A DNA stretch of 64,000 nt, taken from Candidatus Auribacterota bacterium. Its GTDB lineage: Bacteria; Auribacterota; Tritonobacteria; UBA1439. The notes under the pieces were generated by a model. It was not told the origin of the DNA. It worked only from the letters and a program-made list of their open reading frames with translations, and did not search any database. Location: positions 4,597 through 68,596 of the forward strand of contig JAPLCX010000083.1 in assembly GCA_026392035.1 (NCBI GenBank), written 5' to 3'. This document shows, in pieces, positions 32,812 to 55,133 of this stretch (the first letter of the stretch is position 1; the number at the start of each line of letters is the position of its first letter). The translations under genes and the position numbers were made by a program.

Positions 32812-34440
32812 TCACTTTGCGACTCTGTAGATACTCACTCCTCCCCCATCGTAAATCTTTTCGAGATAACCGGCTGTCTCCAGGCTGAAGGGGCCTTTCA
32901 TGCGTTCGAAATTTCCAAAGTAGATATAACTGATGCCGTTCGCCTTTAAAAATTCTCGCTTCTCTCTCTCGGCCCTGGGACCGTAGAGCACCCAGTCCGC
33001 CAGCCGTGCTTTATCAGTGAACCTCAATGTCTCAGACCAGTGCCCCACATACACCCTGTTTCCGGTGTAGGCAGGCAGATAGAGGCCGCTCTTGTATGAA
33101 GAAATGACTGCAGCATCCTCATTATTGTTCTCCTTCATCCATCTCATTGCCGCGACATCTCCCTCATACAGGTAGAACTCGAGCGGCTTGGTTTTCATAT
33201 CGGTGATGCAGCTCATGACCTTGACGATGTTGGAAGGGGTGGTCATCAGAAAGATGAGCACGAGGATAATCGCCTCCACGTGACGTCTCTTCCCCGTGTC
33301 GAGGGCTGTCACCGGGATAAATATGCCAGAGCACGCGGGCAGGAGGTACCTGAATGTCCCCCGCGCCGCAAGGATGCACAGCGGCACGTGGACGGCCGTT
33401 GAGAGCCTCCGCTGGAAGGAGAGTGGCGCGTAGAGGAGTATTGCCACAGCGATTACCCATACCGCAAGGAGCCAATCGTCGCGATTTCCCCTCCTAAAAA
33501 TCCACGCCAGCTCAGGCATGGCGATGAAGAGCACGATGCCGTAGCCGATGACGTAGCTCAACGGGTGCGGGGACAAAAACTTCTCTTTCGACCACTCGAT
33601 GAATACGGGCTCCGTCCTAAAGAGATAAAGCATGTAGAGGAAGGCGGGCAGCGCGACGAGAGCGATAACCGCAGAGGAAGCAAGGACGCGCGCGGCGTCA
33701 TGCCGGTACTTGAAATACACCGTGATGCAATACGTCACCATAACTACCGTGATGGTCACCATGTCGACCGTGTGCACGAAGCTGAGGGCAACGAGCGAGA
33801 GCCCCCCATAGATACTGTTGACCAGTAGCCTCCCCCTGAGCGCCCTGAGCAAGAAGCCGAACCCGAGCAGCATCAGGGCCGCGGTGAGCGCGAATTGGGG
33901 GAATGAGAAAATCGTTTCAAACGTGATCGTCTCCGCGATCCAGTAGTCTATCGGGACGATGTTGAGCCTCGAGAAAAGCATCTCCCACTGGTGATCGGGG
34001 ATCACCCAGCAGAGCCCCGACGAGAACGCGCACAGGGCGAAGGCAAAGGTGCGCTCCCGTTGATCTTCGATAAAAAAGCCGATAAACCAATAGATCACAT
34101 AAAAGAGCAGCAGGGTGTAAAAAACCAGCGCGCCGTAGTAGACCGCGAGGGGGCTCAAACGCGAATAACGCGCCACGATTCCAAGCGTCCACGTGAACGG
34201 ATTGAAAAAAAGCGGCCGCTGTTCCTCCAGCGTAAAATCGCGCCTGATGAAAAATTTTCCCTCGGACGCCTGCTGGATGCGGGAGAGGTAGCTGTTCTGA
34301 TCATAGGGATGGTCGGGGAATCCCATGTACACCATCCCCGGAAGAGTATTGAAGTATCCCCAGGTATACGGGATGAACACAATCGCCACGACCGCGATTG
34401 CAATCGCCCTGACCACACATGCGTGTTTATCTGCGCTCAT
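32812..34440 (-). CDS. polytopic membrane protein, putative GT-C glycosyltransferase
   Basis: 542 aa, about 12 TM helices plus a C-terminal soluble domain; first gene of the GT-C block; upstream ATC(C/T)GTG array. Confidence 0.5.
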   Translation of the reverse strand: MSADKHACVVRAIAIAVVAIVFIPYTWGYFNTLPGMVYMGFPDHPYDQNSYLSRIQQASEGKFFIRRDFTLEEQRPLFFNPFTWTLGIVARYSRLSPLAVYYGALVFYTLLLFYVIYWFIGFFIEDQRERTFAFALCAFSSGLCWVIPDHQWEMLFSRLNIVPIDYWIAETITFETIFSFPQFALTAALMLLGFGFLLRALRGRLLVNSIYGGLSLVALSFVHTVDMVTITVVMVTYCITVYFKYRHDAARVLASSAVIALVALPAFLYMLYLFRTEPVFIEWSKEKFLSPHPLSYVIGYGIVLFIAMPELAWIFRRGNRDDWLLAVWVIAVAILLYAPLSFQRRLSTAVHVPLCILAARGTFRYLLPACSGIFIPVTALDTGKRRHVEAIILVLIFLMTTPSNIVKVMSCITDMKTKPLEFYLYEGDVAAMRWMKENNNEDAAVISSYKSGLYLPAYTGNRVYVGHWSETLRFTDKARLADWVLYGPRAEREKREFLKANGISYIYFGNFERMKGPFSLETAGYLEKIYDGGGVSIYRVAK

Positions 34441-34531
34441 CTGCGGCTATTGTGGACCAATGAAGAAATTTTACTCAGTATCTTCTGCGACTATTTCCAA
34501 GACAATCCGTGTCTATCTGTGTTCATCTGTG
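34428..34531. promoter_or_regulatory. ATC(C/T)GTG half-site array (three sites phased at 10 bp) upstream of and over the start of the first GT-C gene
   Basis: ATCCGTG 34505, ATCTGTG 34515, ATCTGTG 34525; ATCTGCG at 34428 and 34439. Confidence 0.45.
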
Positions 34532-34542
34532 GCTAATACTAA

Positions 34543-35682
34543 TCATCGAATGTAATCATTTTTTCTCAGATAGTCAATCATCGCATCAGCAACAACCCTG
34601 TGGCCATAGCTATTCCAGTGCCCTACTTTCCTATGCACCACCGGGCGAATCCTGCCATGGAGACAGGGTCCGAGATCCACATACCCTATCCTTGCTCCCT
34701 GGCAGAAGCGCTTGAGAAGCGGTGAATAGACTGAGTGTATGTCAGCGATTATGAAGCGGGCGCTATTTTCACGGCAGAGATCGTCAATCCGTTTGAGGAG
34801 CTTTTCTGTCAATGCTAACTCACGCGCCAGTTTCTCCGGGTCGCCTTCTCCCGCAACAGGTTCCGATCCAGCCCATACAGGGTGCGCGAGTCGGAATGTG
34901 AGCCAGTTATACAGGTGGGAGTGGGTAAGAAGTTCTCTCTTCAGATAATCCACCGACCAGTGCGATTCGGACTCTCTACCGGGGATGCCATAGCTCTGGG
35001 CGAGCAGTCTCTTTTTTGCCCAGTATGCCGGCTCGAAGGGAACAGGCGTATTCTTCAACACCAGCCGGTCCCCCTCCCCGACAAAGAACGGCTTCGGCTG
35101 CATCCCGTCTATCACCTTTGCGTTATTCCCCTCAACCACGTCGTTCCGGTCGAAGAGGAGGATCACGATGTCCGGGCGATACTTAAGGCCTTCGGTTTCC
35201 AGGACGAGAAGCTCCTGATCCGTGGAGTAACCGGCTTGGGCGAGGTTGATCACCTCCCATCCGGGGAGCCGCCGCTCCAGGATATCTGAAAATCTCTCCA
35301 ACGCCTCAACCCCCCAGCCCCACGCCGTCGAATCGCCGAGGACGACAATCCTCTTTTTGCCCCACTTTTCGTACGATCGCTCCCGCTCCCTGAATCCTCG
35401 CGAGTTATTCACGATTCTGTGCTTAAAATCGGGGAGGATGAACCACGTCTCAAGGTTCGGCACACCGGCATAGCCGAGGAGTGGATCGTATTGGTCGGGG
35501 AACGAATGAATTGTATCAGAGGTATAATCCGGGAATGGCGCGAAGAGGCGCAGGACTATCTCTGCTGCCGCCAGCGCAATCACAACGGCACCGAGCAGGG
35601 CGCACAGCCTCTTCGCCAGAGCAATCTTACCGCCAGTATCCATAATCCCGCCCGTGTCCACCTCGCAGGTGGATTTGAACAC
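34543..35682 (-). CDS. SGNH/GDSL-hydrolase family protein with N-terminal membrane anchor
   Basis: IVVLGDSTAWGWG block-I serine motif; start may be Met-14. Confidence 0.65.
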   Translation of the reverse strand: MFKSTCEVDTGGIMDTGGKIALAKRLCALLGAVVIALAAAEIVLRLFAPFPDYTSDTIHSFPDQYDPLLGYAGVPNLETWFILPDFKHRIVNNSRGFRERERSYEKWGKKRIVVLGDSTAWGWGVEALERFSDILERRLPGWEVINLAQAGYSTDQELLVLETEGLKYRPDIVILLFDRNDVVEGNNAKVIDGMQPKPFFVGEGDRLVLKNTPVPFEPAYWAKKRLLAQSYGIPGRESESHWSVDYLKRELLTHSHLYNWLTFRLAHPVWAGSEPVAGEGDPEKLARELALTEKLLKRIDDLCRENSARFIIADIHSVYSPLLKRFCQGARIGYVDLGPCLHGRIRPVVHRKVGHWNSYGHRVVADAMIDYLRKNDYIR

Positions 35683-35692
35683 GTTTGTTCAC

Positions 35693-37288
35693 CTACGATG
35701 TGGATTTCGGTCTGAGCTCGTAAAGTCTAAGACTCCCGTTATAATACGAAGTCACCGGCACAAAGTTAAAATCCTTTTCCAATGCCGCGCGGTACCGCGC
35801 CCACCAGTTGAACGTGAAACCGTCCATGTAGACCCTCTTCCCGCTGGCCAGGAGGCTCCTGATATACCCCGGGTTCTCCATGGCGACCTTGAGCGGAAGA
35901 TCCCTCTGCCTGATATACTCCACCTCCCTCGATATAGGCATATACGTACGGTGGGTGCCCCCTATGAAATAATGAGTCACATACACCCCATCAATACCTG
36001 ATATTAGAAAGGCATCATCCGGGGCGATTTGATTCAGCACCTTGAATCCCTCATACCACCACGTCGGGGCATGATGTGTGAGATCTCCGCCCATGAACGG
36101 CTTCGCGCAGCCCCACGCAGTGACCGCGAGGAGGATCGCCACGGGTACGCGCAGGAGAAGCCGGCGACTGACGCTCCCACCTCTGAATACGCCAAGGAGC
36201 ATCACCGTGCCGTTTGCCGCGAGCATGCACACAAACGGCACGACCGGCAGGAAAAACTTGGCCATCTGGAAGGCATAGAAGAGGAGCATGAAAAGGGTGC
36301 CGAAAATGAGTGAAAGTATCATCACTGCAAAACTGAATCTCACCCCTCCCCTATTTTGTCTCACACAGCCAGCGACTCCGAATATCGCGAGCAGAAGCAC
36401 GGCCGGGAAATATGGGGCGAACAGCGTCGGCCAGCTCAGGCCGAAGAAATGCCAGAGATAATAGACGATGTTTCCCCGTTGGTCTCCCCGTTCTGAAACG
36501 GCAGTGTTTCTGATTGCATAGTGCAGGGAGAAATAATCTTTACCTCCCTCCCATCGCTCCCAGTAGTAATAGCCAGTCTTGAATATATCGCCAAACGCCA
36601 TACCGTTATACATAAGGACAGGTGAAATGCCAACAACAAATCCAGCGACAAGATACGCGAGAGAAATGGCTTGGCAACGGATATTCCTGCGGGAACCGAT
36701 AAGGCACGTGGCGCATAGAGGCAGGAGAGTGATGATCCTCATTATATGTACCGCTGTTGAAAAACCACATAGCGCACCCGCAGCGAACCAGAGCCGCGAC
36801 GTTTTCCTCTCACCGACTGCGGCCATCCACGCGAGCCAGAGGCCTGCGATCATAAAGGTGTTGGAGACCATATCACTGATGAGTACCTGGCTGTAACCCA
36901 CATACGAAGGAGCTACCGAGAGAAAGAGGGCTGCAAGAAGAGCCGTCGGGCAGCCGAATACGGATCGCGCAAACAGGTACGCGAGCACTATGGAAGCGAG
37001 GCTAAATGCGAGAACCAGGTAAATCGCCGTGTGGAGTGCTGCCCCTGTCAGCAAGTAATAGAGCGCCAGTATGAGCGGAAAACCGCAGGGGTACATCAGC
37101 GGGAGCCTCAGATCATTTATATATATCCATAACCCCCTACCGTGTGCGAGATTATATCCCGCCACCGCGTACTGGGCGGAATCAGGAACGATCGCGAGAT
37201 CGGCGAGGTAGTACGGCTCAGTATAGCGGAGCGCAAACGCCAGGACCAACACCGCAGCGAGTGACAGCACTTCAAGTGGTTTTTTCAT
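35693..37288 (-). CDS. GT39 (ArnT/PMT-like) polytopic membrane glycosyltransferase
   Basis: About 530 aa, about 12 TM helices, ArnT/PMT_2-like N-terminal region; ATG at 37288 (ORF track extends to TTG at 37300). Confidence 0.7.
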   Translation of the reverse strand: MKKPLEVLSLAAVLVLAFALRYTEPYYLADLAIVPDSAQYAVAGYNLAHGRGLWIYINDLRLPLMYPCGFPLILALYYLLTGAALHTAIYLVLAFSLASIVLAYLFARSVFGCPTALLAALFLSVAPSYVGYSQVLISDMVSNTFMIAGLWLAWMAAVGERKTSRLWFAAGALCGFSTAVHIMRIITLLPLCATCLIGSRRNIRCQAISLAYLVAGFVVGISPVLMYNGMAFGDIFKTGYYYWERWEGGKDYFSLHYAIRNTAVSERGDQRGNIVYYLWHFFGLSWPTLFAPYFPAVLLLAIFGVAGCVRQNRGGVRFSFAVMILSLIFGTLFMLLFYAFQMAKFFLPVVPFVCMLAANGTVMLLGVFRGGSVSRRLLLRVPVAILLAVTAWGCAKPFMGGDLTHHAPTWWYEGFKVLNQIAPDDAFLISGIDGVYVTHYFIGGTHRTYMPISREVEYIRQRDLPLKVAMENPGYIRSLLASGKRVYMDGFTFNWWARYRAALEKDFNFVPVTSYYNGSLRLYELRPKSTS

Positions 37289-37293
37289 TTCTG

Positions 37294-38372
37294 GGGTCAA
37301 ACCCGAAGTTCTAAGTTATTGACTCCATTATTTTTCCTACGCGCTCTTCTAGCTGCTTGTTCTGCTTCAGCTCTATCTGAACCTTCTTATGAACCTGGTT
37401 GATTCGCTCACCGCTAACCCCACCCAATTCTTGGCCCATTTCTTTAAGACTCATAATCTTGAAATTAGTTCGATACGTTATATCGAGTAACACTTGCCGG
37501 GCTTCCTTATGTCTCGATCTACTCTTGCTAATTTCTTCCGCTTTGACTCCATATTCTTTTGCTACCGCTTCAGCCAATTCCTTAATTGGAATCGCCTTCT
37601 TAATCTCTTTTAAATGCGAGTAATCATAAACCAGCAATTCTCTTTGTTTCAAGATATTCGTAGAAACCCAGGTCACAAAATTATCAGTTCCCAACAAAGC
37701 ATTTGCTCTTGCTTTTTCCAATGGATTGTTTAGATCCAATGCTATCCCCTTCAAAACAAAATCCCTATACGCCGCCCTGCACAGCTTATCATCCCCTCCC
37801 ATATAGGCCAATACCATGTCATAACGCATAAAATCATCCCGTTCTCTTGACCTAATATAACCAAGAAAACTGCTCCAATAATACCCCCCCAATATACCAA
37901 TCTTTTTTTCAAGCGGAAGATTGCGATACTTCTCTAACCGCACAGGATTTAAATGAATGTAGCGGCTCAGTTCCAACAAGTATTCATCTGCTTCGATTAG
38001 AATAGCCTTATATCGACCTTGATAGAGATGCCCCGCGCGGTGATGGCGCAGATTGTAATACGTGATATAGGTAGTGTTAAAGCGCTGCATAAATCTACTT
38101 AGATTTGCATCTAATGTCCTCAACAAAAAATGGAAATGGTTACCCATTAATACATAACCGTGCACTTCTATATTGAATAATGCTGCGCTTTCCCTTAGAA
38201 TCTGAAGAAATTTGTTCCGATCTTTATCATCCCTAAAGATATTTGCCCTCTGGTTTCCTCGAGAGGTTACATGATACCATGCATTGTGATATTCTATTCT
38301 CAATGGTCTGGCCATGTTTAAAGAATATCATCAATGAGCACTATTGTCAATTTAGAACTTCGGGTTTGACCC
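37294..38372. mobile_element. compact transposase cassette bounded by perfect 21-bp inverted repeats (gggtcaaacccgaagttctaa / ttagaacttcgggtttgaccc)
   Basis: Repeats at 37294-37314 and 38352-38372 exactly enclose the AT-rich transposase gene, between two divergent GT39 genes. Confidence 0.6.
37311..38315 (-). CDS. IS200/IS605-like Y1 (HUH) transposase with C-terminal DnaA-type HTH (RAYT-like)
   Basis: HUH motif EVHGYVLMGNHFHFLL and catalytic-Tyr region, plus a C-terminal Bac_DnaA_C-like helix-turn-helix; markedly AT-rich. Confidence 0.75.
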   Translation of the reverse strand: MARPLRIEYHNAWYHVTSRGNQRANIFRDDKDRNKFLQILRESAALFNIEVHGYVLMGNHFHFLLRTLDANLSRFMQRFNTTYITYYNLRHHRAGHLYQGRYKAILIEADEYLLELSRYIHLNPVRLEKYRNLPLEKKIGILGGYYWSSFLGYIRSRERDDFMRYDMVLAYMGGDDKLCRAAYRDFVLKGIALDLNNPLEKARANALLGTDNFVTWVSTNILKQRELLVYDYSHLKEIKKAIPIKELAEAVAKEYGVKAEEISKSRSRHKEARQVLLDITYRTNFKIMSLKEMGQELGGVSGERINQVHKKVQIELKQNKQLEERVGKIMESIT

Positions 38373-38373: not shown

Positions 38374-39843
38374 ATGAGATTCATGAGTTATCTATCATCG
38401 GTTTATTCACATAACAAAATCATATACCTCTCTCCGGTATTCTTGATAGGCATAATTTTTGCCATACTCAATAAGCCACTTTTGCTCAAAGAGCCTCCGG
38501 TATGGCCCGACGATTCCCTCTTCGCAAGCCCTGCGTATATCCTCGCCACCCATGGGTATCTGGGATCAGAGCTCTACTATGGAATTGTGCCCGGCCTGGA
38601 GCGCTACACCTATTCCAATCCCCCCCTCTATTTCCTTTTCCTGGCCGGGATCATAAAATTATTTGGCATGAACATCCTGGTCCTGCGTTGGACCTCTGTC
38701 GCCTTGGGGATGTCGCTTTTTGTCCTGCTTTTCTTCCTTGCAAAAGCGGTGGCCCGAACCGGATGGGTCGGCATCCTCGCCTGCACCCTTCTTGCCATCG
38801 ATCCGGAGTTCCTGCGAGGATGCCGTATCGCCCGCCCCGATATCTTGTGCGTGGTGCTGATAACCGCGGCATCGTACTTCTATGCGCGATGCATAAACTG
38901 TCCGGCACATAAAGTGAACCTCACTATGACAGGCCTCTGCATGGGGCTGGCGGTGCTCACCCATCCTCTGGGACTCATTGCCGTCATATCCATTTGCATC
39001 CATTATTTCATAAACGTCGCGCGCGGCAAAGCCAGGTTAAGCGGCACTGTCTATCTGCTCATCCCTTTTCTGCTATTGATTGCCCTCTGGGGGATATATA
39101 TCGCACAGCACTATACATACTTTGAGAAGCAGATGCTTGGCCAATTCGGCCGTAAAATGGGTGTCAGATACTGGCTGTGGTCGCTTTGGGGGCAGAGCGG
39201 ACGCCGGGTCTCATTGCTAATATATATCGCGGCAACGCTTGGCATATTTACAATATCATTAAGGGGAAAAGATAACTCCCTCTTCTTTCTCTCACTATTA
39301 TGCTCCACGGCATTAATCATGGCGCTCAGCGGCAGAGAGATGTGGTACTCGATTTACTATGCGCCCTTTTGCGCATTCGCGGTGGCATTATGTGCAGGCC
39401 GGCTATGGAGAATACGCGCGCCGGTGCCATGCATCGCTCTGTTCTTTATCGGATTCCTCATATACAATAATGCGGCTGATTACCGATGGACCTATATCGC
39501 CACGATGCGCTATGACTACTCCGGCATCTGCGAGGATATAGAGAAGGAACTGCGCCCACATTCAACCATTTTCCTGCACTGTGTTCCCGACCCTTATTTC
39601 TGCCTGATAAATAGCCCTAAGAGCCTCACTATCCGGGAATTTCATCCTACCGCCCCCCTTGCTGACTTAAAGGCAGCCATCGCGCGTTCGGACTATCTGA
39701 TCATCAGTCCGGGCGATACGTACCTGGTCAAGGACATGCCGCCGTGGCGCATCAAGCGTATTGTGCGCATCGGCGCCCATCAACCGGGGCAATATCAGTT
39801 GCTCTTAGTAGAATTTAGAAATATCCGGCGGGAGGAAGAATAA
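38374..39843 (+). CDS. GT39 (ArnT/PMT-like) polytopic membrane glycosyltransferase
   Basis: 489 aa, the only plus-strand gene of the block; ArnT-like N-terminal loop and about 11 TM helices. Confidence 0.65.
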   Translation: MRFMSYLSSVYSHNKIIYLSPVFLIGIIFAILNKPLLLKEPPVWPDDSLFASPAYILATHGYLGSELYYGIVPGLERYTYSNPPLYFLFLAGIIKLFGMNILVLRWTSVALGMSLFVLLFFLAKAVARTGWVGILACTLLAIDPEFLRGCRIARPDILCVVLITAASYFYARCINCPAHKVNLTMTGLCMGLAVLTHPLGLIAVISICIHYFINVARGKARLSGTVYLLIPFLLLIALWGIYIAQHYTYFEKQMLGQFGRKMGVRYWLWSLWGQSGRRVSLLIYIAATLGIFTISLRGKDNSLFFLSLLCSTALIMALSGREMWYSIYYAPFCAFAVALCAGRLWRIRAPVPCIALFFIGFLIYNNAADYRWTYIATMRYDYSGICEDIEKELRPHSTIFLHCVPDPYFCLINSPKSLTIREFHPTAPLADLKAAIARSDYLIISPGDTYLVKDMPPWRIKRIVRIGAHQPGQYQLLLVEFRNIRREEE

Positions 39844-47568: not shown

Positions 47569-48336
47569 TCATTCTTCTGGCATGCCTTTCTTTTCGGCAA
47601 GCGCAATGAGACTGAGCCCGAATGGGAGTGTGCATCTCCGCAACAGAAACCGTTCTGCACCCATAATCCCCTCAAACATGCGATTAAAAGGTGGAGGGGG
47701 AAACCAGAAATCAGTTCTATAGCGCGCACCCTTCCGCAAGGGGAGGATGAGCTTTCTGAGCAGCCGAATAATAATCGCGGGGAGGCAGAGCAGTGAATTA
47801 TAATACGAGATGTAACTGATTTCGAATCCAGATTGTGCCAGTTCCTTTTGAAGGCGGGAGCGATTATAACGCCTCAGATGCCCGAAGGCGAGGTCATGCT
47901 CGCTGAAGATGCATTGACCTGCGGGCACGGTGACGAGCAGGAGAGTGCCTGCGGCCACAGATGAAGAGAGCGTGGCAAGAAAGCCCACAGTATCTTTCAG
48001 GTGCTCCAATAGGTCGAGGAGGAGCACCCCCTTGATATCACCCTCCATCCCGATGAGGCCATCAAGACCATCTCCAAGAAATACAGGACACCCTGTGCGC
48101 TTTCGTGCCACGTCGGCAGCGAATTCGGATATCTCTGTGCCGACCGCCCGGTAATACTTATTGAGCTGTACAAGGTTGCCGCCCGTGCCACACCCAACTT
48201 CCACAACGGTGAAGCCCTTCTGCGGGGGGATGTATCTCGTGAGGAGGTCAATGATAATCCTTCTCCTGGCCAGGAACCACCAGTGTGTATCCTCTATCTC
48301 ACGATGAAGTTCATATCGTGGCAGCGGCATCTCCCT
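47569..48336 (-). CDS. class I SAM-dependent methyltransferase
   Basis: VVEVGCGTGGNL motif I; ORF reaches 48516, start likely MREMPLPRYELHREIEDTHWWF. Confidence 0.7.
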   Translation of the reverse strand, partial: REMPLPRYELHREIEDTHWWFLARRRIIIDLLTRYIPPQKGFTVVEVGCGTGGNLVQLNKYYRAVGTEISEFAADVARKRTGCPVFLGDGLDGLIGMEGDIKGVLLLDLLEHLKDTVGFLATLSSSVAAGTLLLVTVPAGQCIFSEHDLAFGHLRRYNRSRLQKELAQSGFEISYISYYNSLLCLPAIIIRLLRKLILPLRKGARYRTDFWFPPPPFNRMFEGIMGAERFLLRRCTLPFGLSLIALAEKKGMPEE

Positions 48337-49438
48337 CATGGAATGGTCCCCCGATCTCCTCGGCGATGAGGCTATGGGGCCGACGTTTGACCTCGATGTA
48401 CACATGCCCCAGATAGCACCCGATGATGCTGATGTAAAGGGAGAGAAAGCCGCCAAGCCCGATGAGAAGGGTGGTATAGGTCGCCCACCCCGGTATAGCC
48501 CGACTGGTAAATGCACGGATGCACACGATCACCAGGATCGCGATCAGACTGAGCGCACAGCTTAAAACGCCTATACCGAGGCCAAATTGGAGTGGCGCGC
48601 TCGAAAAAGACGTGAGTGCCTCGATGGCCATCTGGACCAGAGTGAATAATGATTGCCTGGGAGTCGCATCGTAGCGCCTGTCTCGGGAATAATGTACCTC
48701 TGCCTGGGAAAATCCGACCCACGTCCGCAATCCGGGAATATAACGCACACGCTCCGGGAACTGTGCGATCACGTCGACGGCCCGTCGGTCGAGCAAGCAG
48801 AAAAGCCCTGACTGTGGAATCATCGGGGGAGACGCGAGTCGTGTGAAGAGCGAATAAAATGCTTTGAAAAGAAGGCCCTTGAGCACGCCCGCCCTTCGAT
48901 CTTCTTTGACAGTGTAAACGATCTTTGCTCCATCCCGCCATTTCTGATAGAGCGTTGGAATGAGCTCGGGGGGATCCTCGAGATCGCCGTCAATGATGAC
49001 CACCGCCCGTCCGCGCGCCTTTTGGAGAGCGGTGGTAACCGCCGCTTGGAGCCCGAAGTTTCGAGAGTGCCGGATGCCGCGGAGGTATGGCTTTTGTCGC
49101 GAAAGCCGCGTGATTTTCTCCCACGTCGCATCGCGGCTCCCGTCATCAACGATAATAATTTCAAATTCGCGGCTACAGCTTAAGGCAGCACGGGCGGCAC
49201 GCTCAACAAATGCCTCGACAACACATTCCTCACACCACATCGGCGCACAGATTGAGAGATCAATCGGAATGCGTTGAGCGTTGAGCGGCGTTTGGCAGAA
49301 CGGGCACACGCGAGCCACCGTGACACCCGCAGAGGCAAATACCTCCCTGCATTTATTGCACGTATACATTTTCATCATGCACCACACACCAATGCTAGCA
49401 CGGAGCGATCGTAACGGCAAGTACCTCTCTATCCCCAA
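48311..49438 (-). CDS. GT2 polyprenyl-phosphate sugar synthase-like glycosyltransferase with N-terminal zinc ribbon and C-terminal TM helices
   Basis: CNKCREV...CPFCQ zinc ribbon; GT-A core IIIVDDGSRD...VIIDGDLEDPPE (DXD); two C-terminal TM helices, as in ArnC/DPM1-like enzymes. Confidence 0.7.
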   Translation of the reverse strand: MGIERYLPLRSLRASIGVWCMMKMYTCNKCREVFASAGVTVARVCPFCQTPLNAQRIPIDLSICAPMWCEECVVEAFVERAARAALSCSREFEIIIVDDGSRDATWEKITRLSRQKPYLRGIRHSRNFGLQAAVTTALQKARGRAVVIIDGDLEDPPELIPTLYQKWRDGAKIVYTVKEDRRAGVLKGLLFKAFYSLFTRLASPPMIPQSGLFCLLDRRAVDVIAQFPERVRYIPGLRTWVGFSQAEVHYSRDRRYDATPRQSLFTLVQMAIEALTSFSSAPLQFGLGIGVLSCALSLIAILVIVCIRAFTSRAIPGWATYTTLLIGLGGFLSLYISIIGCYLGHVYIEVKRRPHSLIAEEIGGPFHEGDAAATI

Positions 49439-51114
49439 AGAAGGGGCGCAGGGAGGGGCTTGTTCATACCCTTCTTTGTTTCCACGGCATCGCCGTGAGT
49501 CGCGACGTCATGCCCGACATCCCTTCTCCTAAAAATGAGAAAATCCTCAATTCCCCTATCGAATATATAATTTCCCGCGATGAACTTCTCTATACCTGGA
49601 TATCTCCCGAGGCTTCTCAGCGAATCGTCACGCGTCCCAGTCGCCCACCAGGCAGGATCGTTTCTCACAATGAGAATAAGCTTCGGCCTGCCCCGAACCA
49701 GGGACGCGAGAAGCTCATCACCATAGCGGTCAGGGGACCAGTTGCAACGCAGCGGGAAATTGTGAATAAAGCGCGAGACATGCGGCCTCCCGGCACAATA
49801 GTACACGAGTGTCTCGCACCCCCATATAAAAACCGTCTCGTCCGGTCTTGTAGTATGCTTAATGTAATCTGCCACGACCAGGTCTGCGGGCAGGGAGAAA
49901 TCATCCGAGGTGAACCTCACGTTCATGTAATAATCGTTCAGATCCCTTCGTTTTAGCAACCGGTCTGCGAGCGCGCGCGCGCTGTCCCTATACACCTGCA
50001 TACAATACACATTATACCGGCTGTTTACGGTAAGGAGCGGTATCGCGACGACAAGCACAAGCACCAGCACTGCCACGCGCCTGAGGGGCTGCGCGTGATG
50101 CTTCCGAAACGGGAACGCCAGCGCGGATGAAGCGCCTATCGATAGAGGCGCGGCAAGGGGAGCAAAATGGTAGATGTAGAACTTGTTCTGGATGTAAAGA
50201 TTCATCAGCGCGGCAAGCGCCCAGAGGGCAATCAGGTTGATTCGGAGACCGGGAGATCTCGTCGTCGCCGCCCAGGCATAGCTGATCAGCGCGAGGATCG
50301 CGAGGCTCACAAAACTGAAATGCGAGCTGAAGATGTCGCCGAGATGCAACAAGCCGGACACAGTGTGCGGCGGGGCGCCGACACGGCCGTACTCCCTTGC
50401 CCAGGTGAATTCTGTATACAGGAATTCTCTCCAGGCCCCTGTCAAATAAAGATAGACGGCATAACTCCCCACACAGAGAACGAACCCGCCCACCATGCAG
50501 GCGAGGCCCCCGAACGTTCTCCTGCTCCTCCCTTTCCCTACCAGCAGCACCACCATGCAGACGGCGAGCATCAATCCCATGGGATACTTGAGATAAAAGG
50601 CCGCCCCTACAAGGATTCCCTCTGCGAACGACAGAAAGAGAATCCGCTCCCTGTCGAGGGAGCGGAGCAGCAGAAGAACCGCGAGCGCGAGCGGGAGATT
50701 GAGAAAATCGTCCGGCTGCGCGGTGTTCCACCATCCCCTGCTCGCGTAGGCACTCACATAGATAAGGCCGGCGATCACCGCCACGTCATCGCTCTTTGCG
50801 ATACGCCTGGTGATCTGGAAAAGCACCGCCGCGGTTGCAACCTGCCAGAAAAGGTCCAGCCATCTTATTGCGTGTATTGAATAGCTGAACAAAAACTCAC
50901 TCAACGCATAGATGTAATAAATCGCAGGGGGTTTCGTATCCCAGAAATCCCTGAAGGGGACCGCTCCTTTGAGCACGAGATGTCCCGCGTAGGCAAACAT
51001 CCCCTGGTCCCTGCCTGGTGGGTAGATGAGGGTCGGGAGCATTACAAAGAGGGCGAGCCCAACCAGCAGGAGAAGCTTGACCGGCGAGGTATTTTTGCTA
51101 AAAATAATGTTCAT
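49429..51114 (-). CDS. GT39 (ArnT/PMT-like) polytopic membrane glycosyltransferase
   Basis: 561 aa, ArnT-like N-terminal loop (RDQGMFAYAGHLVLKGAVPFRDFWDTKPP), about 13 TM helices. Confidence 0.7.
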   Translation of the reverse strand: MNIIFSKNTSPVKLLLLVGLALFVMLPTLIYPPGRDQGMFAYAGHLVLKGAVPFRDFWDTKPPAIYYIYALSEFLFSYSIHAIRWLDLFWQVATAAVLFQITRRIAKSDDVAVIAGLIYVSAYASRGWWNTAQPDDFLNLPLALAVLLLLRSLDRERILFLSFAEGILVGAAFYLKYPMGLMLAVCMVVLLVGKGRSRRTFGGLACMVGGFVLCVGSYAVYLYLTGAWREFLYTEFTWAREYGRVGAPPHTVSGLLHLGDIFSSHFSFVSLAILALISYAWAATTRSPGLRINLIALWALAALMNLYIQNKFYIYHFAPLAAPLSIGASSALAFPFRKHHAQPLRRVAVLVLVLVVAIPLLTVNSRYNVYCMQVYRDSARALADRLLKRRDLNDYYMNVRFTSDDFSLPADLVVADYIKHTTRPDETVFIWGCETLVYYCAGRPHVSRFIHNFPLRCNWSPDRYGDELLASLVRGRPKLILIVRNDPAWWATGTRDDSLRSLGRYPGIEKFIAGNYIFDRGIEDFLIFRRRDVGHDVATHGDAVETKKGMNKPLPAPLLWG

Positions 51115-51135: not shown

Positions 51136-52662
51136 CTACCTTACAGAGAGCGGAATATATTTCCCGCTTTTTTCATCATAGGCCATGATGGGTTTTTCTT
51201 TAAGGTGGTTCCAGCACCGGTAGCCGGCCAGGGCATAGTAGATTTCTTCGTATTGATCAACCGGCCTTCCGAGCCCGTCGATGAGCATAAGTCCCTTGCC
51301 TTCCTCTGTGTGCTTCAACCAAAAGTCCAGAGATTCTGAAGGGGTGGACTTGACGTCATACCATACTATAACACGATAAATGCTGGGATTATCCAGATTA
51401 GAAAGATTTTCCGGATATGCCAGCAGATGATGGATCGGGAGGAGCAGGCAAATCAGTATGCCGGCCCATTTGAGCCCCGCAGGCCGGGTTTCCCGACCGG
51501 TCAGATAATACCAGACGATCGCGTAGACGGCATAGATTGCCGCTAGGATTCCCGTGCACCGGCGGATGCCCGGCGCGTTCATGTCCAGATTGGGAAGAAT
51601 AAGATTGAGGACAAGCAACAACCAGCTGAGAAGCAGGACGAGCCGGAGCGACCTTCTTGTAAAAAACAAAACTATCCCTGCAATCATGACAAATGCAACC
51701 GGGATGATCCCCGTCGCGCCTGAAAATTCGGTGCGTGAGAGCTCGAAGTGATAACCCTGGCCCCGCACAACCAGTTCTCTGAAGACAACTTTCAGACATC
51801 CGGCAAGAGCGGACAGATCCGGCTTGATGCCGCCTCCGCCGCGGAATAAGCCCCTTGTCGTAACTGGGTCATAAACGAGAATACTTCTGTTCTTTACATA
51901 CAGGAAGCCGACCAGTAAGGGCACCATGAAGGCAGCAATGCTTAAAAGCACATTTCCCGTTACATACAGGGCACCGCGCATTTTAGCCCGCTTCCCGAGC
52001 TGTCGAAGATACAGAATAATCAGAACCGGCAGGTAAAGGATAAAAACAGGATACGACGTGCACGCTATCATAACCAGTCCCCAGAGCGCTATTTGTATGA
52101 TGGCAACCAGCCATTTCTTATCGAAATTGAGCTTCGTTACCAGAAAGAGACAAATGGGGAAGTACTGAAGATCGAAGCCGTAGCCGCCTTGCATCATGCT
52201 GAAATAGAGAAAAATCGGCGAGAGTCCTATAGTGATAAGGGGCAGCCAGGCCCTGCCTGCGCCCATCAAGTTCCGAAGCACGCCTGCCAGGCAAAAGATT
52301 GAAACGAGATGGATTGCCAGCCGGACGATCTTGGCCGTGTGAAGTCCGAAGCCAAAGCAGTTATAAACAAAAAGCAACAGACCGTACCACCCGATGTTGG
52401 TTGACGCCCCGTTGTAGACAATGCGGTGCTGTAGCAAATACACGTTGCGAACAGATTCCATCAGTTCTTCATAACGGATCTGATTCATGGAGCGGAAGGA
52501 GTAAACGGCCTGTAAGCCAAAAAGCAGCGCTGCAAGCCACCAGTAGAGTGAAACCGTAGCACCGGTTTTCCCTGAAATAGACTTGCTCGATAAGTTCTGC
52601 AAGAAATTGAACCCCTGAAATAGTTTTCCCGTAACCGGCGAGTAACCGACTCCAAACCTCAT
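51136..52662 (-). CDS. polytopic membrane protein, GT-C-like
   Basis: 508 aa, about 12 TM helices, within the GT-C block. Confidence 0.5.
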   Translation of the reverse strand: MRFGVGYSPVTGKLFQGFNFLQNLSSKSISGKTGATVSLYWWLAALLFGLQAVYSFRSMNQIRYEELMESVRNVYLLQHRIVYNGASTNIGWYGLLLFVYNCFGFGLHTAKIVRLAIHLVSIFCLAGVLRNLMGAGRAWLPLITIGLSPIFLYFSMMQGGYGFDLQYFPICLFLVTKLNFDKKWLVAIIQIALWGLVMIACTSYPVFILYLPVLIILYLRQLGKRAKMRGALYVTGNVLLSIAAFMVPLLVGFLYVKNRSILVYDPVTTRGLFRGGGGIKPDLSALAGCLKVVFRELVVRGQGYHFELSRTEFSGATGIIPVAFVMIAGIVLFFTRRSLRLVLLLSWLLLVLNLILPNLDMNAPGIRRCTGILAAIYAVYAIVWYYLTGRETRPAGLKWAGILICLLLPIHHLLAYPENLSNLDNPSIYRVIVWYDVKSTPSESLDFWLKHTEEGKGLMLIDGLGRPVDQYEEIYYALAGYRCWNHLKEKPIMAYDEKSGKYIPLSVR

Positions 52663-52718
52663 AATCCCTTACTGATTAAGCTAAATAAGGAAGATTGCGC
52701 CCAAGATAATCGAAAAGC

Positions 52719-55133
52719 TCACCTGAGCGGATGAGGCAGGGCGCCCCGCCGGCAAGCCAGAGCGCAAAAATACAGCCCCAGAATTGCCAGTGCCCCTAAT
52801 GTTATTCGCGCACCCAGAGCAAACGATCGCGACTCATAGCGGAATGTCACCATGTGCGCCCCCGCATCAAGTGCAACCGCCCTGAATGCATAGTTCGCGC
52901 GGAGTATTTCATTGCGCTGACCATCGACGTACGCCATCCATCCTGGATAATAGACATCGCTCAGGACAAGCACGCCAGCATCGGGGAGCGTCGCTCTGAT
53001 GACGACCTCCCGCGGGAGCGAGCTCGTCAGCTCAACCCGGGTTATCTGTCCCGCCACCATCTTCTCAGGCAACGTCACGCCCGGTTTCTTCTCAAGGATG
53101 ACCTCGCGGGCGAAATCAAAATGCTCACCCAATTCGTGAAGAATTTTCTCGCGATCGGAAATAATCCGGGCTTTATGGACCACGTATGCGCGGGGAATGG
53201 GTGTCTCCCGCTCATAGATATTTGTCCCGTCGCCTCCAAAACTCAGCCGATAGCCCGCCCTCATAAAACGCTGCTCCGCGGGAAGGATCAGATATCGGAG
53301 GCCAAGTGCCTCCAGCATCGGCGTGACGGTGTTGATGGCAAAGGTGAGCTGCGTTGCGGAGGAGACCCCCTGTGAGAAATCCACATATTCCTTGTAACTT
53401 CCCACGTTCGTCGTCTCATACCCATCAATGGCATAGATCCCCACGTTCATGTTCTGATTGGCGCCGGGCACTGCGATACTGGGGGCGAGGATTCTGAAGT
53501 CCGAACGGTCAGACGTAAAAAAATCAGCCACTCCCCTCGGCCAGTAGCAGGACGAGAGCGGGCTCACCATGATGTACTTCGAACCGTAGTGCCAGAGGTC
53601 AGTGAGGGAGATGCAGAGGATGAGCGCGCTCACAATCGCCGGCCATTGTTTCTTGTGCGTTGCAATCAAGATAACAGAAGATGATACTCCCAGCCAGATG
53701 GCAGCAGTGAGAATGCCTCTCCACGCAACGTGGTAGGTGGCGCGTATCAGCTGGATGTCTGCGGGATGGGGCGGAGGAGTCCCCTCAAAACCCCTCGCTG
53801 CGCGATAACGTAATGCCGCCTGCCAGAGAGAGGAGCGTTCCCCTCCGCTGGCGGCCATGACCAGACAGAGCAGCAGAAGAAGAAGGGCCAGCGCAAGCGT
53901 TGCGCCGCCAACGATCAGGAATTGCTTTTTTCTTTCCCCGGAGCACCTGGTCACACAGTGGCACCCATACCCTGCAAGCACGGAGAGAGAAAACGTCGTC
54001 AGGAATATGAATTTAGCCTGCCCCCTGAAGAGGGTAAAGCCGGGAACGTGATAGTAGAATATTTTAAAAAGCGGAGAATAGGCCCCGAATGCCAGCAGGA
54101 GTGAAAAGAGCGCCAATCCTGAAAAGAACAAGGTATAGCGATTCCGGATAAACAGCGATCCTATCAACGCAAGCACGAGTGGGAGGATTCCCACATAGGC
54201 GCAGGTCTCCCAGAGCAGCCATCTCCCCCAATATCGCACCTCGTGCATGTCACCCAAGAAACCGGGGACAAGGAAAGTGACGATATTCTCCGGAGGGAAA
54301 GAAACATCGCTCACCGCCTTTGGATCACGAAGCAACGTGCGACTTGAGTGAGTGGTGAATTCCATGCTCGGGAATAGCTGGATCGCGGAGAGTGCAATGC
54401 CCACCACAAGAATGACCACGATGCCCCCGCATACGTATCCGAGGGGCGAAATACTCCCCGCCCCGCGGCAGTCGATGAGCCCCCGGAACAGCAGATACAG
54501 CACAAGCGCACCCAGGCAATACGCCATGTATTGGGGGTGCCCGGCAAGGACCTGCAGCGCGAGCACGGCCCCCCCGAGGATATAGTAGCGCATCTCCTTC
54601 TTGCGCAACGCAATCTCGGCGAGGAGCAGGGAGAGCGGGAACCAGGACAACGGATTGAATATATGGCCCGGAAAAAGCTGGACGAGGTACGGCCCGGAGA
54701 AGATAAAGGTGAGTGCAGAAACGAGCGCGCTGAAGCGGTCTCCCAGGAGATACCTCACGAACGCGTACGTGAGGACACCGGTGAGAAAGAAATGAAAAGC
54801 GATCGAGTAGTTAAGGGCGCTGTGGACAGGTATAAAGAGGAATATGAGGTTGAGGGGATAGAATATTGCGGAGTGCCAGTTTGCAACAAATGGCACCCCG
54901 CAGAAGAGATACGGATTCCAGAGCGGGATCACTCCCTTTTTCAGAAGACCAAACCCGAAGAGCCTCAAGGGATATATGTGGTGGGTGAGATCGAGAAAAA
55001 TGGGATGGCTGAGGATAACCTGGGAATTGAAGAACGATTTCCTGAAAAGGGCAACTGTAACAAAGAGAAGGAGCAGGATACAATACCGATCTCTCAACCG
55101 CGGCATCGCTTCCTCGGGTGCATTGTTACTCAT
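52719..55133 (-). CDS. YfhO-like large polytopic membrane protein (GT-C)
   Basis: 804 aa; VIPLWNPYLFCGVPFVANWH YfhO-like motif; long C-terminal soluble domain. Confidence 0.6.
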   Translation of the reverse strand: MSNNAPEEAMPRLRDRYCILLLLFVTVALFRKSFFNSQVILSHPIFLDLTHHIYPLRLFGFGLLKKGVIPLWNPYLFCGVPFVANWHSAIFYPLNLIFLFIPVHSALNYSIAFHFFLTGVLTYAFVRYLLGDRFSALVSALTFIFSGPYLVQLFPGHIFNPLSWFPLSLLLAEIALRKKEMRYYILGGAVLALQVLAGHPQYMAYCLGALVLYLLFRGLIDCRGAGSISPLGYVCGGIVVILVVGIALSAIQLFPSMEFTTHSSRTLLRDPKAVSDVSFPPENIVTFLVPGFLGDMHEVRYWGRWLLWETCAYVGILPLVLALIGSLFIRNRYTLFFSGLALFSLLLAFGAYSPLFKIFYYHVPGFTLFRGQAKFIFLTTFSLSVLAGYGCHCVTRCSGERKKQFLIVGGATLALALLLLLLCLVMAASGGERSSLWQAALRYRAARGFEGTPPPHPADIQLIRATYHVAWRGILTAAIWLGVSSSVILIATHKKQWPAIVSALILCISLTDLWHYGSKYIMVSPLSSCYWPRGVADFFTSDRSDFRILAPSIAVPGANQNMNVGIYAIDGYETTNVGSYKEYVDFSQGVSSATQLTFAINTVTPMLEALGLRYLILPAEQRFMRAGYRLSFGGDGTNIYERETPIPRAYVVHKARIISDREKILHELGEHFDFAREVILEKKPGVTLPEKMVAGQITRVELTSSLPREVVIRATLPDAGVLVLSDVYYPGWMAYVDGQRNEILRANYAFRAVALDAGAHMVTFRYESRSFALGARITLGALAILGLYFCALACRRGALPHPLR

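Follow-up and report, generated by a model that had tools for sequence, protein, structure and literature searches.

A modular 22-kb block of ten dissimilar GT-C membrane proteins and a GT2 synthase in an uncultured Candidatus Auribacterota bacterium, a candidate locus for extracytoplasmic glycosylation

The analysed DNA (the window, 64,000 nt) of an uncultured Candidatus Auribacterota/Aureabacteria bacterium contains a 22-kb block in which ten dissimilar GT-C membrane proteins lie together with a GT2 synthase, a methyltransferase, an SGNH hydrolase and a transposase unit, as listed in Table 1. The ten polytopic reading frames were all found where a preliminary description of this DNA had placed them, nine of them on the minus strand, and the genes of the block, which share one strand with a single exception, are spaced by −29 to 133 bp. 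Hydropathy gives 6–11 strongly hydrophobic segments per GT-C protein, which is a conservative count, and about 12–13 membrane helices are present in each of two AlphaFold models. Direct Pfam matches are to PMT_2 for three of the ten and to YfhO for two, the latter in line with their earlier assignment; by profile or structure searches all ten belong to the GT-C superfamily, as had been proposed, and no transporter family was matched above noise among them in Pfam and NCBIfam profile searches. No soluble glycosyltransferase was found interleaved in the block, again as described before. Only two pairs among the ten are detectable by BLASTP, g41554/g52719 (4e-20; 31% identity) and g38374/g49429 (4e-4). 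By sequence comparison, the proteins come from GT-C families, at least six in number, that separated long ago and are now gathered in one place, not from a recent expansion of paralogs, and the earlier view of GT-C paralogy in one locus is not upheld. The GC3 is 0.52–0.73 in the block, compared with 0.72–0.86 in housekeeping genes.

Table 1. Features of the 22-kb block (positions in the window).
Feature	Position	Strand	Remarks
g32812, STT3/AglB-like GT-C	32812..34440	-	542 aa; closes trio; TM domain and AglB-type C-terminal globular domain
SGNH/GDSL hydrolase	34543..35682	-	379 aa; mid-trio; Pfam Lipase_GDSL_2 3.2e-9
g35693, PMT_2 GT-C	35693..37288	-	531 aa; opens conserved trio; Pfam PMT_2 3.1e-9
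Y1 (IS200-like/RAYT-like) transposase unit	37294..38372	-	CDS 37311-38315; DnaA_C-type HTH
g38374, PMT/PMT_2 GT-C	38374..39843	+	489 aa; Pfam PMT_2 5.1e-12, PMT 6.2e-9
g39853, lineage-restricted GT-C family	39853..41553	-	566 aa; core; no Pfam model
g41554, YfhO-family GT-C	41554..43260	-	568 aa; core; Pfam YfhO 1.5e-13
g43302, GT-C with C-terminal TPR	43302..45278	-	658 aa; core; TPR at residues ~525-650
g45317, GT87-like GT-C	45317..47173	-	618 aa from ATG at 47173; ORF to 47296; accessory
Class I SAM methyltransferase, Methyltransf_23	47569..48339	-	256 aa; Pfam 8.6e-10
GT2 polyprenyl-phosphate sugar synthase, GtrB/PgfS/ArnC type	48311..49378	-	355 aa; best start 49378
g49429, PMT_2 (ArnT/PMT-like) GT-C	49429..51114	-	561 aa; core; Pfam PMT_2 2.3e-13
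g51136, PMT_2-like GT-C	51136..52662	-	508 aa; variable slot
g52719, YfhO-family GT-C	52719..55133	-	804 aa; opens conserved core; Pfam YfhO 1.4e-16

Differential levels of family evidence were observed for the GT-C members. The YfhO score of g52719 is 60.6 bits against a Pfam cut-off of 28.5, weak C-terminal PgfM1/M2 matches (NCBIfam) occur in the YfhO proteins of the block, and the NCBIfam ArnT and Pmt matches of g49429 are weak. No Pfam match was obtained for g51136 itself, and PMT_2 is matched by 10 of its 34 homologs (best 6.8e-8), whereas g45317 scores 22.6–23.2 bits for GT87, below the 25-bit cut-off that its orthologs exceed (28.4 and 25.9 bits). The C-terminal TPRs of g43302, noticed earlier, are confirmed by Pfam TPR families; the protein matches the LA_3751/LA_3752 putative glycosyltransferases in NCBIfam (4.5e-15), and its TM domain, for which there is no Pfam model, aligns with the g32812 family at 92% probability (hhalign profile-profile, E 6.6e-7), the g43302 family itself comprising 4,244 representative clusters. 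Acidic residues after TM1 are conserved across homologs of four members: D41/D43 are invariant in the g39853 family, E65/E66/E69 near-invariant in that of g51136, D47 of g32812 is conserved at 93%, and D51/D65 form a conserved pair in the g43302 family, in which D65 is nearly invariant and K77, H164 and R382 are invariant.

The closest structural matches of g32812 are STT3, AglB and PglB by two structural methods, AftA and ArnT score nearly as high, and neither the WWDYG motif nor a Pfam STT3 match was found in this protein; its oligosaccharyltransferase-like fold is missing from the preliminary description. The neighbouring SGNH hydrolase, correctly recognised before, has a GDS motif (VVLGDSTAWG) and a single N-terminal TM anchor (residues 26–44). 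The reading frame at 37311-38315, previously taken for a second methyltransferase, was rejected as such, since it matches Pfam Y1_Tnp (1.4e-12) and NCBIfam REP_Tyr_transpos (9.8e-17) and is bracketed by 24-nt inverted repeats (37294-37317 and 38349-38372; 96% complementary) that identify a mobile unit. The 21-nt core of these repeats occurs at just these two sites in the window, the transposase has a GC3 of 0.42, and a homolog of it adjoins the block in two relatives (L004 and L012). The unit is adjoined by g38374, the sole plus-strand member, for which no ortholog was found among nine related loci.

The GT2 is of the polyprenyl-phosphate-sugar type, as previously proposed, and matches the solved GtrB (sll0501, 5ekp) at 7.6e-55 over residues 37–340, full-length and including both TM helices, followed by ArnC (3.6e-27) and DPMS (1e-14). 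Its best NCBIfam match is PgfS (6.4e-53), ahead of ArnC (2.4e-30), both under the equivalog cut-offs. A DxD motif (DGDLEDPPE) is present, the N-terminus carries a CxxC...CxxC extension and the C-terminus two TM helices. The sole methyltransferase gene of the block shares 29 nt with the stop-codon end of the GT2 gene; the methylation proposed earlier keeps one supporting gene, not two. A GT2 and Methyltransf_23 pair is also present in L004, on the opposite side of the block, and the position of the GtrB-like GT2 is not fixed, the 41%-identical GT2 of L004 lying elsewhere; GT2 proteins of other types occur in L005 (synthase-like TM-GT2) and in L008 and L013 (Glyco_transf_21-type).

Most of the gene order is repeated in six other contigs at 40–77% amino-acid identity; the arrangement is not due to chance, and the genes are syntenic, not scattered, in related MAGs. 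The order YfhO, PMT_2, (GT87), TPR-bearing GT-C, YfhO, g39853, PMT_2, SGNH, oligosaccharyltransferase-like was observed in L004, L011 and L013 and partially in L005, L006 and L012. Within it, a conserved core (YfhO, PMT_2, TPR-bearing GT-C, YfhO and g39853) and a conserved trio (PMT_2 GT-C, SGNH and oligosaccharyltransferase-like GT-C) can be recognised, and the five core genes and the trio keep the same order in at least four MAGs, with identities of 46–77%. Orthologs of core members were found for g52719 in L004, L005, L006 and L013 (51–76% identity), and for g49429 (52–73%) and g41554 (52–77%) in five loci each, and those of g35693 in the trio occur in L008, L009, L011, L012 and L013 (50–68%). 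In L008, L009, L012 and L013 the SGNH ortholog (56–70% identity) has the same GT-C neighbours on both sides. The core gene g39853 is inverted relative to its counterparts and has just 40–43% identity to them. The remaining slots are variable, such as g45317, which is found in L004, L005 and L011 and missing from L006 and L013, and g51136, with an ortholog in L011 only (77%), two other PMT_2 genes in its slot in L005 and an empty slot in L004, and both are dispensable in some relatives. The block is thus composite, and it need not be one pathway, because the trio stands alone as an operon in L008 and L009 (two genomes) and the L009 trio lies on a different contig from the L006 core of the same MAG. 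The dedicated multi-step system proposed earlier is borne out only in part, in view of this modularity, the variable slots and the uniqueness of g38374.

These observations suggest a modular, operon-like chromosomal locus for extracytoplasmic glycosylation, in which the stepwise assembly of one complex glycan is the most likely function (probability roughly 0.55). The recurrence of most of the arrangement in related genomes suggests an unusually elaborate extracytoplasmic sugar-assembly line. At the cytoplasmic face, a nucleotide sugar would serve the GtrB/PgfS-type GT2 as the source of the hexose or N-acetylhexosamine that it links to polyprenyl (undecaprenyl) phosphate, and a flippase encoded elsewhere would carry the lipid-linked sugar to the periplasmic face. 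The GT-C series (two YfhO, two to four PMT_2-like, and one each of GT87-like, TPR-bearing and lineage-specific type), each with a conserved acidic set of its own in the first outer loop, might then add sugars stepwise or as branches onto an envelope acceptor; the trio, with its membrane-anchored SGNH protein as a putative esterase or acyl-editing enzyme, may finish, attach or edit the product, and the GT2-coupled methyltransferase probably methylates the sugar. The glycan could be lipid-anchored, or be built on the polysaccharide of a locus 10–25 kb upstream that contains Wzy_C-TPR, WecA-like (PF00953), MurJ/MOP, two GT1, RmlA/B/D and an LPG_synthase_TM flippase-like gene; the core of L006, too, has a Wzy_C-TPR gene upstream, at a distance of a few kb. 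The host is probably diderm, with Lnt and a LolCDE-like ABC transporter encoded nearby. Three-component systems of GT2, flippase and GT-C are experimentally established (PMC11127046), as is the supply of YfhO enzymes by GtrB/PgfS (PMC11092751), and seven distinct GT-C families in a fixed order argue for successive different reactions instead of redundancy. Against a single stepwise glycan stand the unfixed position of the GT2, the stand-alone trio and the dispensable g45317 and g51136, as well as the ratio of one GT2 to ten GT-Cs, with which most donors would need an outside source; no GtrA, SMR or MATE flippase was found in the block or in the blocks of relatives, and no small multi-TM reading frame in the whole window.

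The same modularity would also fit an island of independent glycosylation modules, each decorating a different target (an O-antigen-like polymer, lipid A/core, a peptidoglycan-associated polymer or proteins) from shared polyprenyl-phosphate sugars, much like a row of three-component systems of the Gtr, YfhO or ArnT kind, swapped for surface variation. The stand-alone trio, the variable slots with the window-only g38374, the transposase with its repeats inside the block and its homologs beside it, the GC3 and the inverted, divergent g39853 all point this way; the order of core and trio is nevertheless better conserved than expected for freely shuffled decorators, and every classical seroconversion module brings a GtrA and a GtrB with it, unlike the genes here, leaving this reading rather unlikely. 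More doubtful still is general protein glycosylation, in which YfhO (likened to PgtC2 and PgfM1/M2), PMT-like and TPR-bearing (likened to TMTC) GT-Cs would O-glycosylate periplasmic or surface proteins and g32812 would transfer a preassembled glycan to a non-canonical site. Streptococcal YfhO enzymes glycosylate Ser/Thr-rich protein regions (PMC11092751), and this precedent, the PgfS match of the GT2, the two YfhO proteins with PgfM1/M2 matches, the Pfam PMT match of g38374, the TPRs as protein-binding modules and the structural neighbours of g32812 speak in its favour, but g32812 lacks the sequon-reading WWDYG motif and an STT3 match and scores almost equally against AftA and ArnT, whose acceptors are glycan and lipid, teichoic acids and lipid A are also substrates of the YfhO and PMT_2 families, the block has neither a PgfE-type epimerase nor a candidate Ser/Thr-rich acceptor gene, and one operon with ten different protein glycosyltransferases would have no known precedent. 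That some or most members are inactive GT-C-fold scaffolds (like PIG-U/GAB1), lipid-carrier handlers or transporters, and the enzyme series an illusion, seems highly improbable, as catalytic GT-Cs outscore PIG-U/GAB1 for both models, the first-outer-loop acidic residues are conserved across homologs and transporter families are not matched above noise.

Among known systems, the three-component systems (GtrA/GtrB/GtrC in Shigella and Salmonella, CsbB/GtcA/YfhO in Bacillus and Listeria, ArnC/ArnEF/ArnT, and the C. youngae pentofuranose system) resemble the block in that a GT2 with two C-terminal TM helices adjoins extracytoplasmic GT-C transferases, here including two YfhO and three PMT_2 (ArnT-like family) members; they differ in having one GT-C per GT2 instead of ten from at least six families, in the flippase gene that the block lacks, in the methyltransferase coupled to the GT2 here, and in a single serotype-specific enzyme where the block has a multi-GT-C order conserved across genomes. 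The streptococcal Pgf/GtrB-PgtC2 O-glycosylation system shares the PgfS-like GT2 and two YfhO-type GT-Cs corresponding to PgfM1 and PgfM2, whereas the GT2 here reaches 180 of the 500 bits required by the PgfS equivalog cut-off, no PgfE epimerase, adhesin or Ser/Thr-rich substrate gene is present in the block, and eight non-YfhO GT-Cs are extra. The TMTC likeness drawn earlier for g43302 holds for its architecture, with TPRs placed C-terminal to a polytopic GT-C domain, as in TMTC1-4 and in bacterial PMT_2/LA_3751-type fusions, but not for any TMTC-specific domain or signature or PMT_2 Pfam match, and TPRs occur in only about one fifth of the sampled members of this very large prokaryotic family. 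The logic of the block may also be likened to the ALG series of the ER-lumenal N-glycan path (DPM1/ALG5, ALG3/9/12/6/8/10, then STT3) and to AglB/PglB; g32812 departs from these in its missing WWDYG motif and STT3 Pfam signal and its nearly equal ArnT and AftA scores, the upstream genes would suit an ordinary bacterial O-antigen-type locus just as well, and nothing points to an Asn-linked product. The mycobacterial arabinogalactan/LM-LAM system (EmbA/B/C, AftA-D, PimE and MptA-C with Ppm1 and the DPA pathway) differs in phylum, and the block, from a probably diderm host, has no Emb/Aft family membership at the sequence level, no arabinose or DPA pathway genes and a much denser arrangement (ten genes in 22 kb). 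By analogy, the two may nonetheless share the successive action of many different GT-Cs, outside the membrane and with polyprenyl-phosphate sugars, on a single glycan linked to lipid or wall; the block contains GT87 (PimE-type) and AftA-like folds, and embCAB-aftA is a partial precedent for such clustering of GT-C genes.

The glycosyltransferase block encompasses 14 real genes, named by their start coordinates and listed in the table, with gaps of -29 to 133 bp between them, and those of its proteins that bear any name in public records are called 'hypothetical protein' (locus tags NTX71_08885 and NTX71_08910 among them). Several Logan assemblies hold contigs identical to the window. Housekeeping genes were observed on both flanks, dCTP deaminase and ThiD on one side and a LolCDE/MacB-like ABC pair, LysRS, Lnt and SecA on the other, indicating a chromosomal locus and a host bacterium that is probably diderm. 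The tRNA and Rfam scans of the window gave no matches, and therefore no tRNA-linked island boundary was found, while promoter and terminator consensus scans returned no informative signal from the intergenic regions. An 81-aa ORF of public gene sets, located between g45317 and the methyltransferase gene, was considered as a GtrA-like flippase and rejected, being basic, non-hydrophobic and devoid of a family match; it is probably not a gene, and the 395-bp stretch separating these two genes may be regulatory. The other ORFs of the block merely overlap the main genes. Three ORFs without a confident family, with weak matches to Peptidase_Mx and circularly permuted ATP-grasp, lie between this block and the polysaccharide locus upstream of it.

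Coordinates of the block genes, numbered in minus-strand transcription order, and of the associated features (window positions unless another contig is named)
Order	Feature	Start	End	Strand	Length or remark
	Block	32812	55133		14 genes
1	g52719, GT-C	52719		-	804 aa
2	g51136, GT-C	51136		-	508 aa
3	g49429, GT-C	49429		-	561 aa
4	GT2, polyprenyl-phosphate sugar synthase	48311	49378	-	355 aa from ATG at 49378
5	Methyltransferase			-	256 aa; 29-nt overlap with GT2 stop
6	g45317, GT-C	45317		-	618 aa
7	g43302, GT-C	43302		-	658 aa
8	g41554, GT-C	41554		-	568 aa
9	g39853, GT-C	39853		-	566 aa
10	g38374, GT-C	38374		+	489 aa; sole plus-strand gene of block
11	Y1 transposase	37311	38315	-	334 aa
12	g35693, GT-C	35693		-	531 aa
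13	SGNH protein (g34543)	34543		-	379 aa
14	g32812, GT-C	32812	34440	-	542 aa
	GT2 N-terminal extension	49271	49378	-	about 36 residues
	ORF of public gene sets	47307	47552		81 aa
	TM domain of g43302	43719	45278
	Segment of transposase, g38374 and g39853	37294	41553
	Y1 transposase unit	37294	38372
	Inverted repeat	37294	37317		24 nt
	Inverted repeat	38349	38372		24 nt
	Three ORFs between the glycan loci	28543	32109		341, 468, 315 aa
	LPG_synthase_TM gene	25464	26516
	RadC/JAB-domain gene	21106	21822
	Methyltransf_24 and GT1 genes	18720	20723
	MurJ/MOP gene	14043	15617
	g32812 homolog and neighbors, L010	8249	13039
	Genes following trio, L008	11783	13981
	Genes following trio, L013	1165	3054

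All ten polytopic membrane proteins proved to be GT-C, as the preliminary description had proposed, with evidence of varying strength: each exhibits a polytopic membrane domain (7–13 TM segments) and resembles solved GT-C enzymes in sequence or fold. Half of them pass Pfam cut-offs directly, PMT_2 being matched by g35693, g49429 and g38374 (which also matches Pfam PMT), and the two expected YfhO-type members, g41554 and g52719, both scoring (50.5 and 60.6 bits) above the PF09586 gathering cut-off of 28.5. Against GT87/DUF2029 (PF09594), g45317 reaches 22.6–23.2 bits, below the 25-bit cut-off, and its orthologs in the related loci L004 and L005 score 28.4 and 25.9 over the same region, while g51136 has no Pfam match of its own, PMT_2 being matched by 10 of its 34 homologs. 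For g39853 and g32812, the two members without any family signal, alignments of database homologs were built and structures were predicted. The catalytic residues of GT-C enzymes usually sit just after TM1, and acidic residues at this place, in the first extracytoplasmic loop, are conserved in all five families aligned (D41/D43 in g39853, D47 in g32812, E65/E66/E69 in g51136, D51/D65 in g43302 and D10 in g45317); for the other five GT-Cs they were read from the single sequence only. No meaningful match was obtained with the g39853, g51136 and g45317 alignments as profiles against PDB sequences, and hhalign of shallow ortholog profiles gave no signal (A5 versus A1, A4 versus A3, and likewise A6 versus A1). 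From the fold and the adjacent GtrB-type GT2, we infer that the ten GT-Cs would use a lipid-phosphate-linked sugar donor. The extensive paralogy initially attributed to the locus was not recovered, and a recent paralog expansion was rejected, as all-against-all BLASTP found just two weakly related pairs among the ten (g41554/g52719, 31% identity, 4e-20; g38374/g49429, 4e-4). Judged by sequence, the block brings together at least six anciently separate GT-C lineages.

The likeness of g43302 to eukaryotic TMTC proteins held in part: the C-terminal TPRs are genuine, and a PMT_2/TMTC-type membrane domain with its TMTC-specific region was not detected. No PMT_2 or TMTC-specific Pfam family was matched, and the nearest named family was the NCBIfam LA_3751/LA_3752 putative glycosyltransferase (4.5e-15, 55 bits versus a cut-off of 200). 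Between a 55-sequence profile of the TM domain and the g32812 family, the alignment covered 226 equivalent columns, with a probability of 92% (E 6.6e-7). This domain belongs to a very large prokaryotic family, with 4,244 representative clusters at E <= 1e-3 (2,381 at E <= 1e-10), which has no Pfam model, contains invariant K77, H164 and R382, and looks like an unrecognised major GT-C family; TPRs occur in about one fifth of its sampled members and PA14 domains in a few.

The last three minus-strand genes form a trio of g35693, the SGNH gene and g32812. The presence of an SGNH hydrolase, as first described, was borne out by a Lipase_GDSL_2 match of 38 bits (cut-off 32.9) and by the block I GDS serine in 'GDSTAWG'. 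By two independent structural methods, the predicted structure of g32812 is nearest to oligosaccharyltransferase (OST) catalytic subunits, the top 13 Foldseek matches all being Stt3, STT3A/B or AglB (E 2e-9 to 3e-8), and it combines a GT-C membrane domain with a C-terminal globular domain of the AglB/PglB central-core type; its structural scores to AftA and ArnT are only slightly below those to OST subunits. In OSTs, the +2 Ser/Thr of the sequon is bound by a WWDYG motif in the C-terminal domain; this motif is missing from g32812, where 'SWWDYG' of AfAglB-S2 aligns with 'S-x-Y-K-S-G' in a weak alignment (E 0.09–0.2) of uncertain register; the family's own conserved motif, 'GHWSET', lies downstream of this position. 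No Pfam family was matched at E <= 0.01, and hence no STT3 (PF02516), and the best PDB profile match, to the AglB C-terminal domain, had an E of 0.09. A canonical N-oligosaccharyltransferase was thus not adopted, since the WWDYG motif and the STT3 profile are both absent and AftA and ArnT are nearly as close, and g32812 is described, on its predicted structure, as having an OST-like architecture. A distant homolog (26–29% identity) on the 620-kb metagenomic contig L010 directly follows UppS, the undecaprenyl-diphosphate synthase, and CdsA, and precedes a GT87 GT-C, these neighbors suggesting a link to polyprenyl-phosphate metabolism. After the trio, L008 and L013 both encode a SIMPL-domain protein and a GT2 of the Glyco_transf_21 type, similar to ceramide glucosyltransferase, which may hint at a lipid acceptor.

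The single GT2 displays the ArnC/DPM1 layout ascribed to it, with a GT-A domain, the DxD motif 'DGDLEDPPE', interface helices and two C-terminal TM segments (289–307 and 323–341 of the 375-aa ORF translation). It aligned over its full length with solved GtrB (Synechocystis sll0501, 5ekp) at 7.6e-55 (query 37–340, chain 24–328 of 341), with ArnC over the full length at 3.6e-27 and with archaeal DPMS at 1e-14, and is by these similarities a polyprenyl-phosphate glycosyltransferase of the GtrB/ArnC/DPM1/PgfS type. Its best NCBIfam match was PgfS (6.4e-53), and it scored below all equivalog cut-offs (PgfS 180 bits versus 500, ArnC 105.7 versus 529), so that no sugar specificity can be read from it. 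The N-terminal extension, preceding residue 37, from which solved GtrB and ArnC begin to align, carries a CxxC...CxxC pattern ('CNKC...CPFC') and looks like a zinc ribbon. One methyltransferase was found rather than the two described earlier, the gene taken for the second encoding a Y1 transposase. No dedicated GtrA/SMR/MATE flippase was detected, as the window contains no ORF of 70–200 aa with three or more TM segments, and the blocks of the relatives likewise have no flippase gene. Candidate flippases encoded 17–35 kb from the GT2 are a MurJ/MOP protein and an LPG_synthase_TM membrane protein ('flippase-like', TIGR00374) that adjoins the Rml genes; because the GT-C block has no GtrA-type gene, the latter is a candidate flippase for polyprenyl-phosphate sugars.

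Nine related loci were recovered and every window gene was mapped onto each, and the block was found to be syntenic rather than scattered, in agreement with the initial expectation. The core genes g52719, g49429, g43302, g41554 and g39853 keep the same order in L004 (a Ca. Auribacterota MAG), L006, L011 and L013, with identities of 40–77%; L005, which shares the LysRS, MacB and ABC neighborhood of the window, has the core without g39853 within the fetched part. Accessory members vary: g45317 occurs in three loci and is lacking from two, and g51136 has an ortholog only in L011, its slot holding two other PMT_2 genes in L005 and none in L004, while g38374 has no counterpart in any of the nine. 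The trio adjoins the core in L012 and L013 and forms a stand-alone three-gene operon in L008 and L009, L009 and L006 being separate contigs of one MAG; in L004 the g39853 ortholog is followed by a fragment of g35693, and a contig of equal length carries a homolog of g32812. L004 has the GT2 and methyltransferase genes paired as well, at the other side of the block, and other relatives have different GT2 types nearby.

The transposase is an IS200-like/RAYT-like Y1 protein fused to a DnaA_C-type HTH, and its unit (GC3 0.42) is bounded by inverted repeats that are 96% complementary; only two copies of the repeat occur in the window, and a dispersed REP element was rejected. Homologs with 57% identity lie beside the GT-C blocks of L004 and L012, indicating that this element family recurs at these loci. 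Strain variation at the site was likewise rejected, L001–L003 being 100% identical to the window and differing in gene calling only. Co-oriented with its neighbors in the window, g39853 lies on the opposite strand in all five relatives (L004, L006, L011, L012 and L013) and is 40–43% identical to their counterparts, compared with 50–77% for neighboring genes, and the segment of transposase, g38374 and g39853 has the lowest GC3 of the block (0.42–0.61). The segment was therefore rearranged or replaced, and the strand and divergence of g39853 suggest its inversion or allelic replacement together with insertion of g38374 and the transposase. GC3 of the block genes is 0.52–0.73 overall, versus 0.72–0.86 in housekeeping neighbors, lowered GC3 being usual for surface-glycan loci.

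A conventional polysaccharide locus is located 10–25 kb upstream of the block, with Wzy_C-TPR, a PF00953 WecA/MraY-type initiating transferase, a methyltransferase, the MurJ/MOP flippase, two GT1 genes, AsnB, RmlA, RmlB, RmlD and the LPG_synthase_TM gene. Since L006, too, has a Wzy_C-TPR gene, a few kb upstream of its core, a polysaccharide backbone is a plausible acceptor. Within the upstream locus, the Methyltransf_24 and GT1 genes (GC3 0.44–0.49 versus about 0.75 in neighbors) look like a recently acquired two-gene cassette, and a RadC/JAB-domain gene with a stop/start overlap with RmlD lies between a GT1 gene and RmlD.

The best-supported model, with a probability of roughly 0.55, is extracytoplasmic assembly or branching of an envelope glycan by the conserved GT-C series, with the trio completing it. 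The GtrB-type GT2 would charge polyprenyl phosphate, the lipid-linked sugar would then be flipped, the distinct GT-Cs would assemble or branch the glycan in the extracytoplasmic space, and the trio would act last, finishing, attaching or editing the product; a series of reactions is proposed because seven non-redundant GT-C families keep a fixed order across MAGs. That fixed order has to be weighed against the stand-alone trio, the variable slots, the transposase inside the block and its base composition, which all favor the main rival, an island of independent decorators, regarded as rather unlikely. Unlikelier still is a protein-glycosylation system, with which the YfhO precedents (PMC11092751), the PgfS-like GT2, the TPR domain and the OST-like fold agree, and against which the missing WWDYG and the lack of a substrate gene argue. 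Non-catalytic members or transporters are essentially excluded, profile searches having returned no transporter family; placement in transporter or other non-glycosyltransferase families had been named beforehand as the contrary outcome.

A more specific joint reading, improbable as a whole, is that Auribacterota have a bacterial equivalent of the part of N-glycan biosynthesis that takes place in the ER lumen. In the cytoplasm, the ALG7-family and GT1 enzymes encoded upstream would start a lipid-linked oligosaccharide, which would be flipped and extended stepwise in the periplasm by the fixed GT-C series with donors from the DPM1/GtrB-like synthase, and a compact STT3/AglB-like enzyme would finally transfer it en bloc, to an acceptor other than the N-x-S/T sequon because WWDYG is replaced. 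If true, this would represent a new oligosaccharyltransferase class and a new multi-GT-C pathway outside Actinobacteria and eukaryotes.

Auribacterota, a candidate phylum, is discussed in connection with the PVC group. Extracytoplasmic GT-C glycosylation in bacteria usually involves one enzyme per system, and long GT-C series have been described chiefly for mycobacterial cell walls and the eukaryotic ER. Under the best-supported model, the conservation of seven to ten different GT-Cs in one block in this uncultured phylum points to a complex envelope glycan or glycoconjugate synthesized for the most part outside the cytoplasm, which would be a third, independent example of such serial logic. 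Three GT-C families are missed by current Pfam models, namely those of g43302 (>4,000 representative clusters), g32812 and g39853, the last of which appears restricted to this lineage, and the g32812 family, OST-like in fold and without WWDYG, could yield new glycan-transfer specificities for glycoengineering. In the literature searched, of which coverage was incomplete, there was nothing on glycosylation of the Auribacterota envelope and no GT-C locus of comparable density. The parts of the block (GT-C enzymes, a GtrB-like GT2, an SGNH hydrolase and a methyltransferase) all belong to known kinds, and its logic is that of the known three-component glycosylation systems (PMC11127046), from which it differs in having no dedicated flippase encoded with the GT2 and GT-C. 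What is new is the GT-C multiplicity with conserved order in a candidate phylum, the OST-like GT-C without WWDYG inside a conserved PMT_2-SGNH-OST-like operon, and two more GT-C families without a Pfam model, one of them with 4,244 representative clusters.
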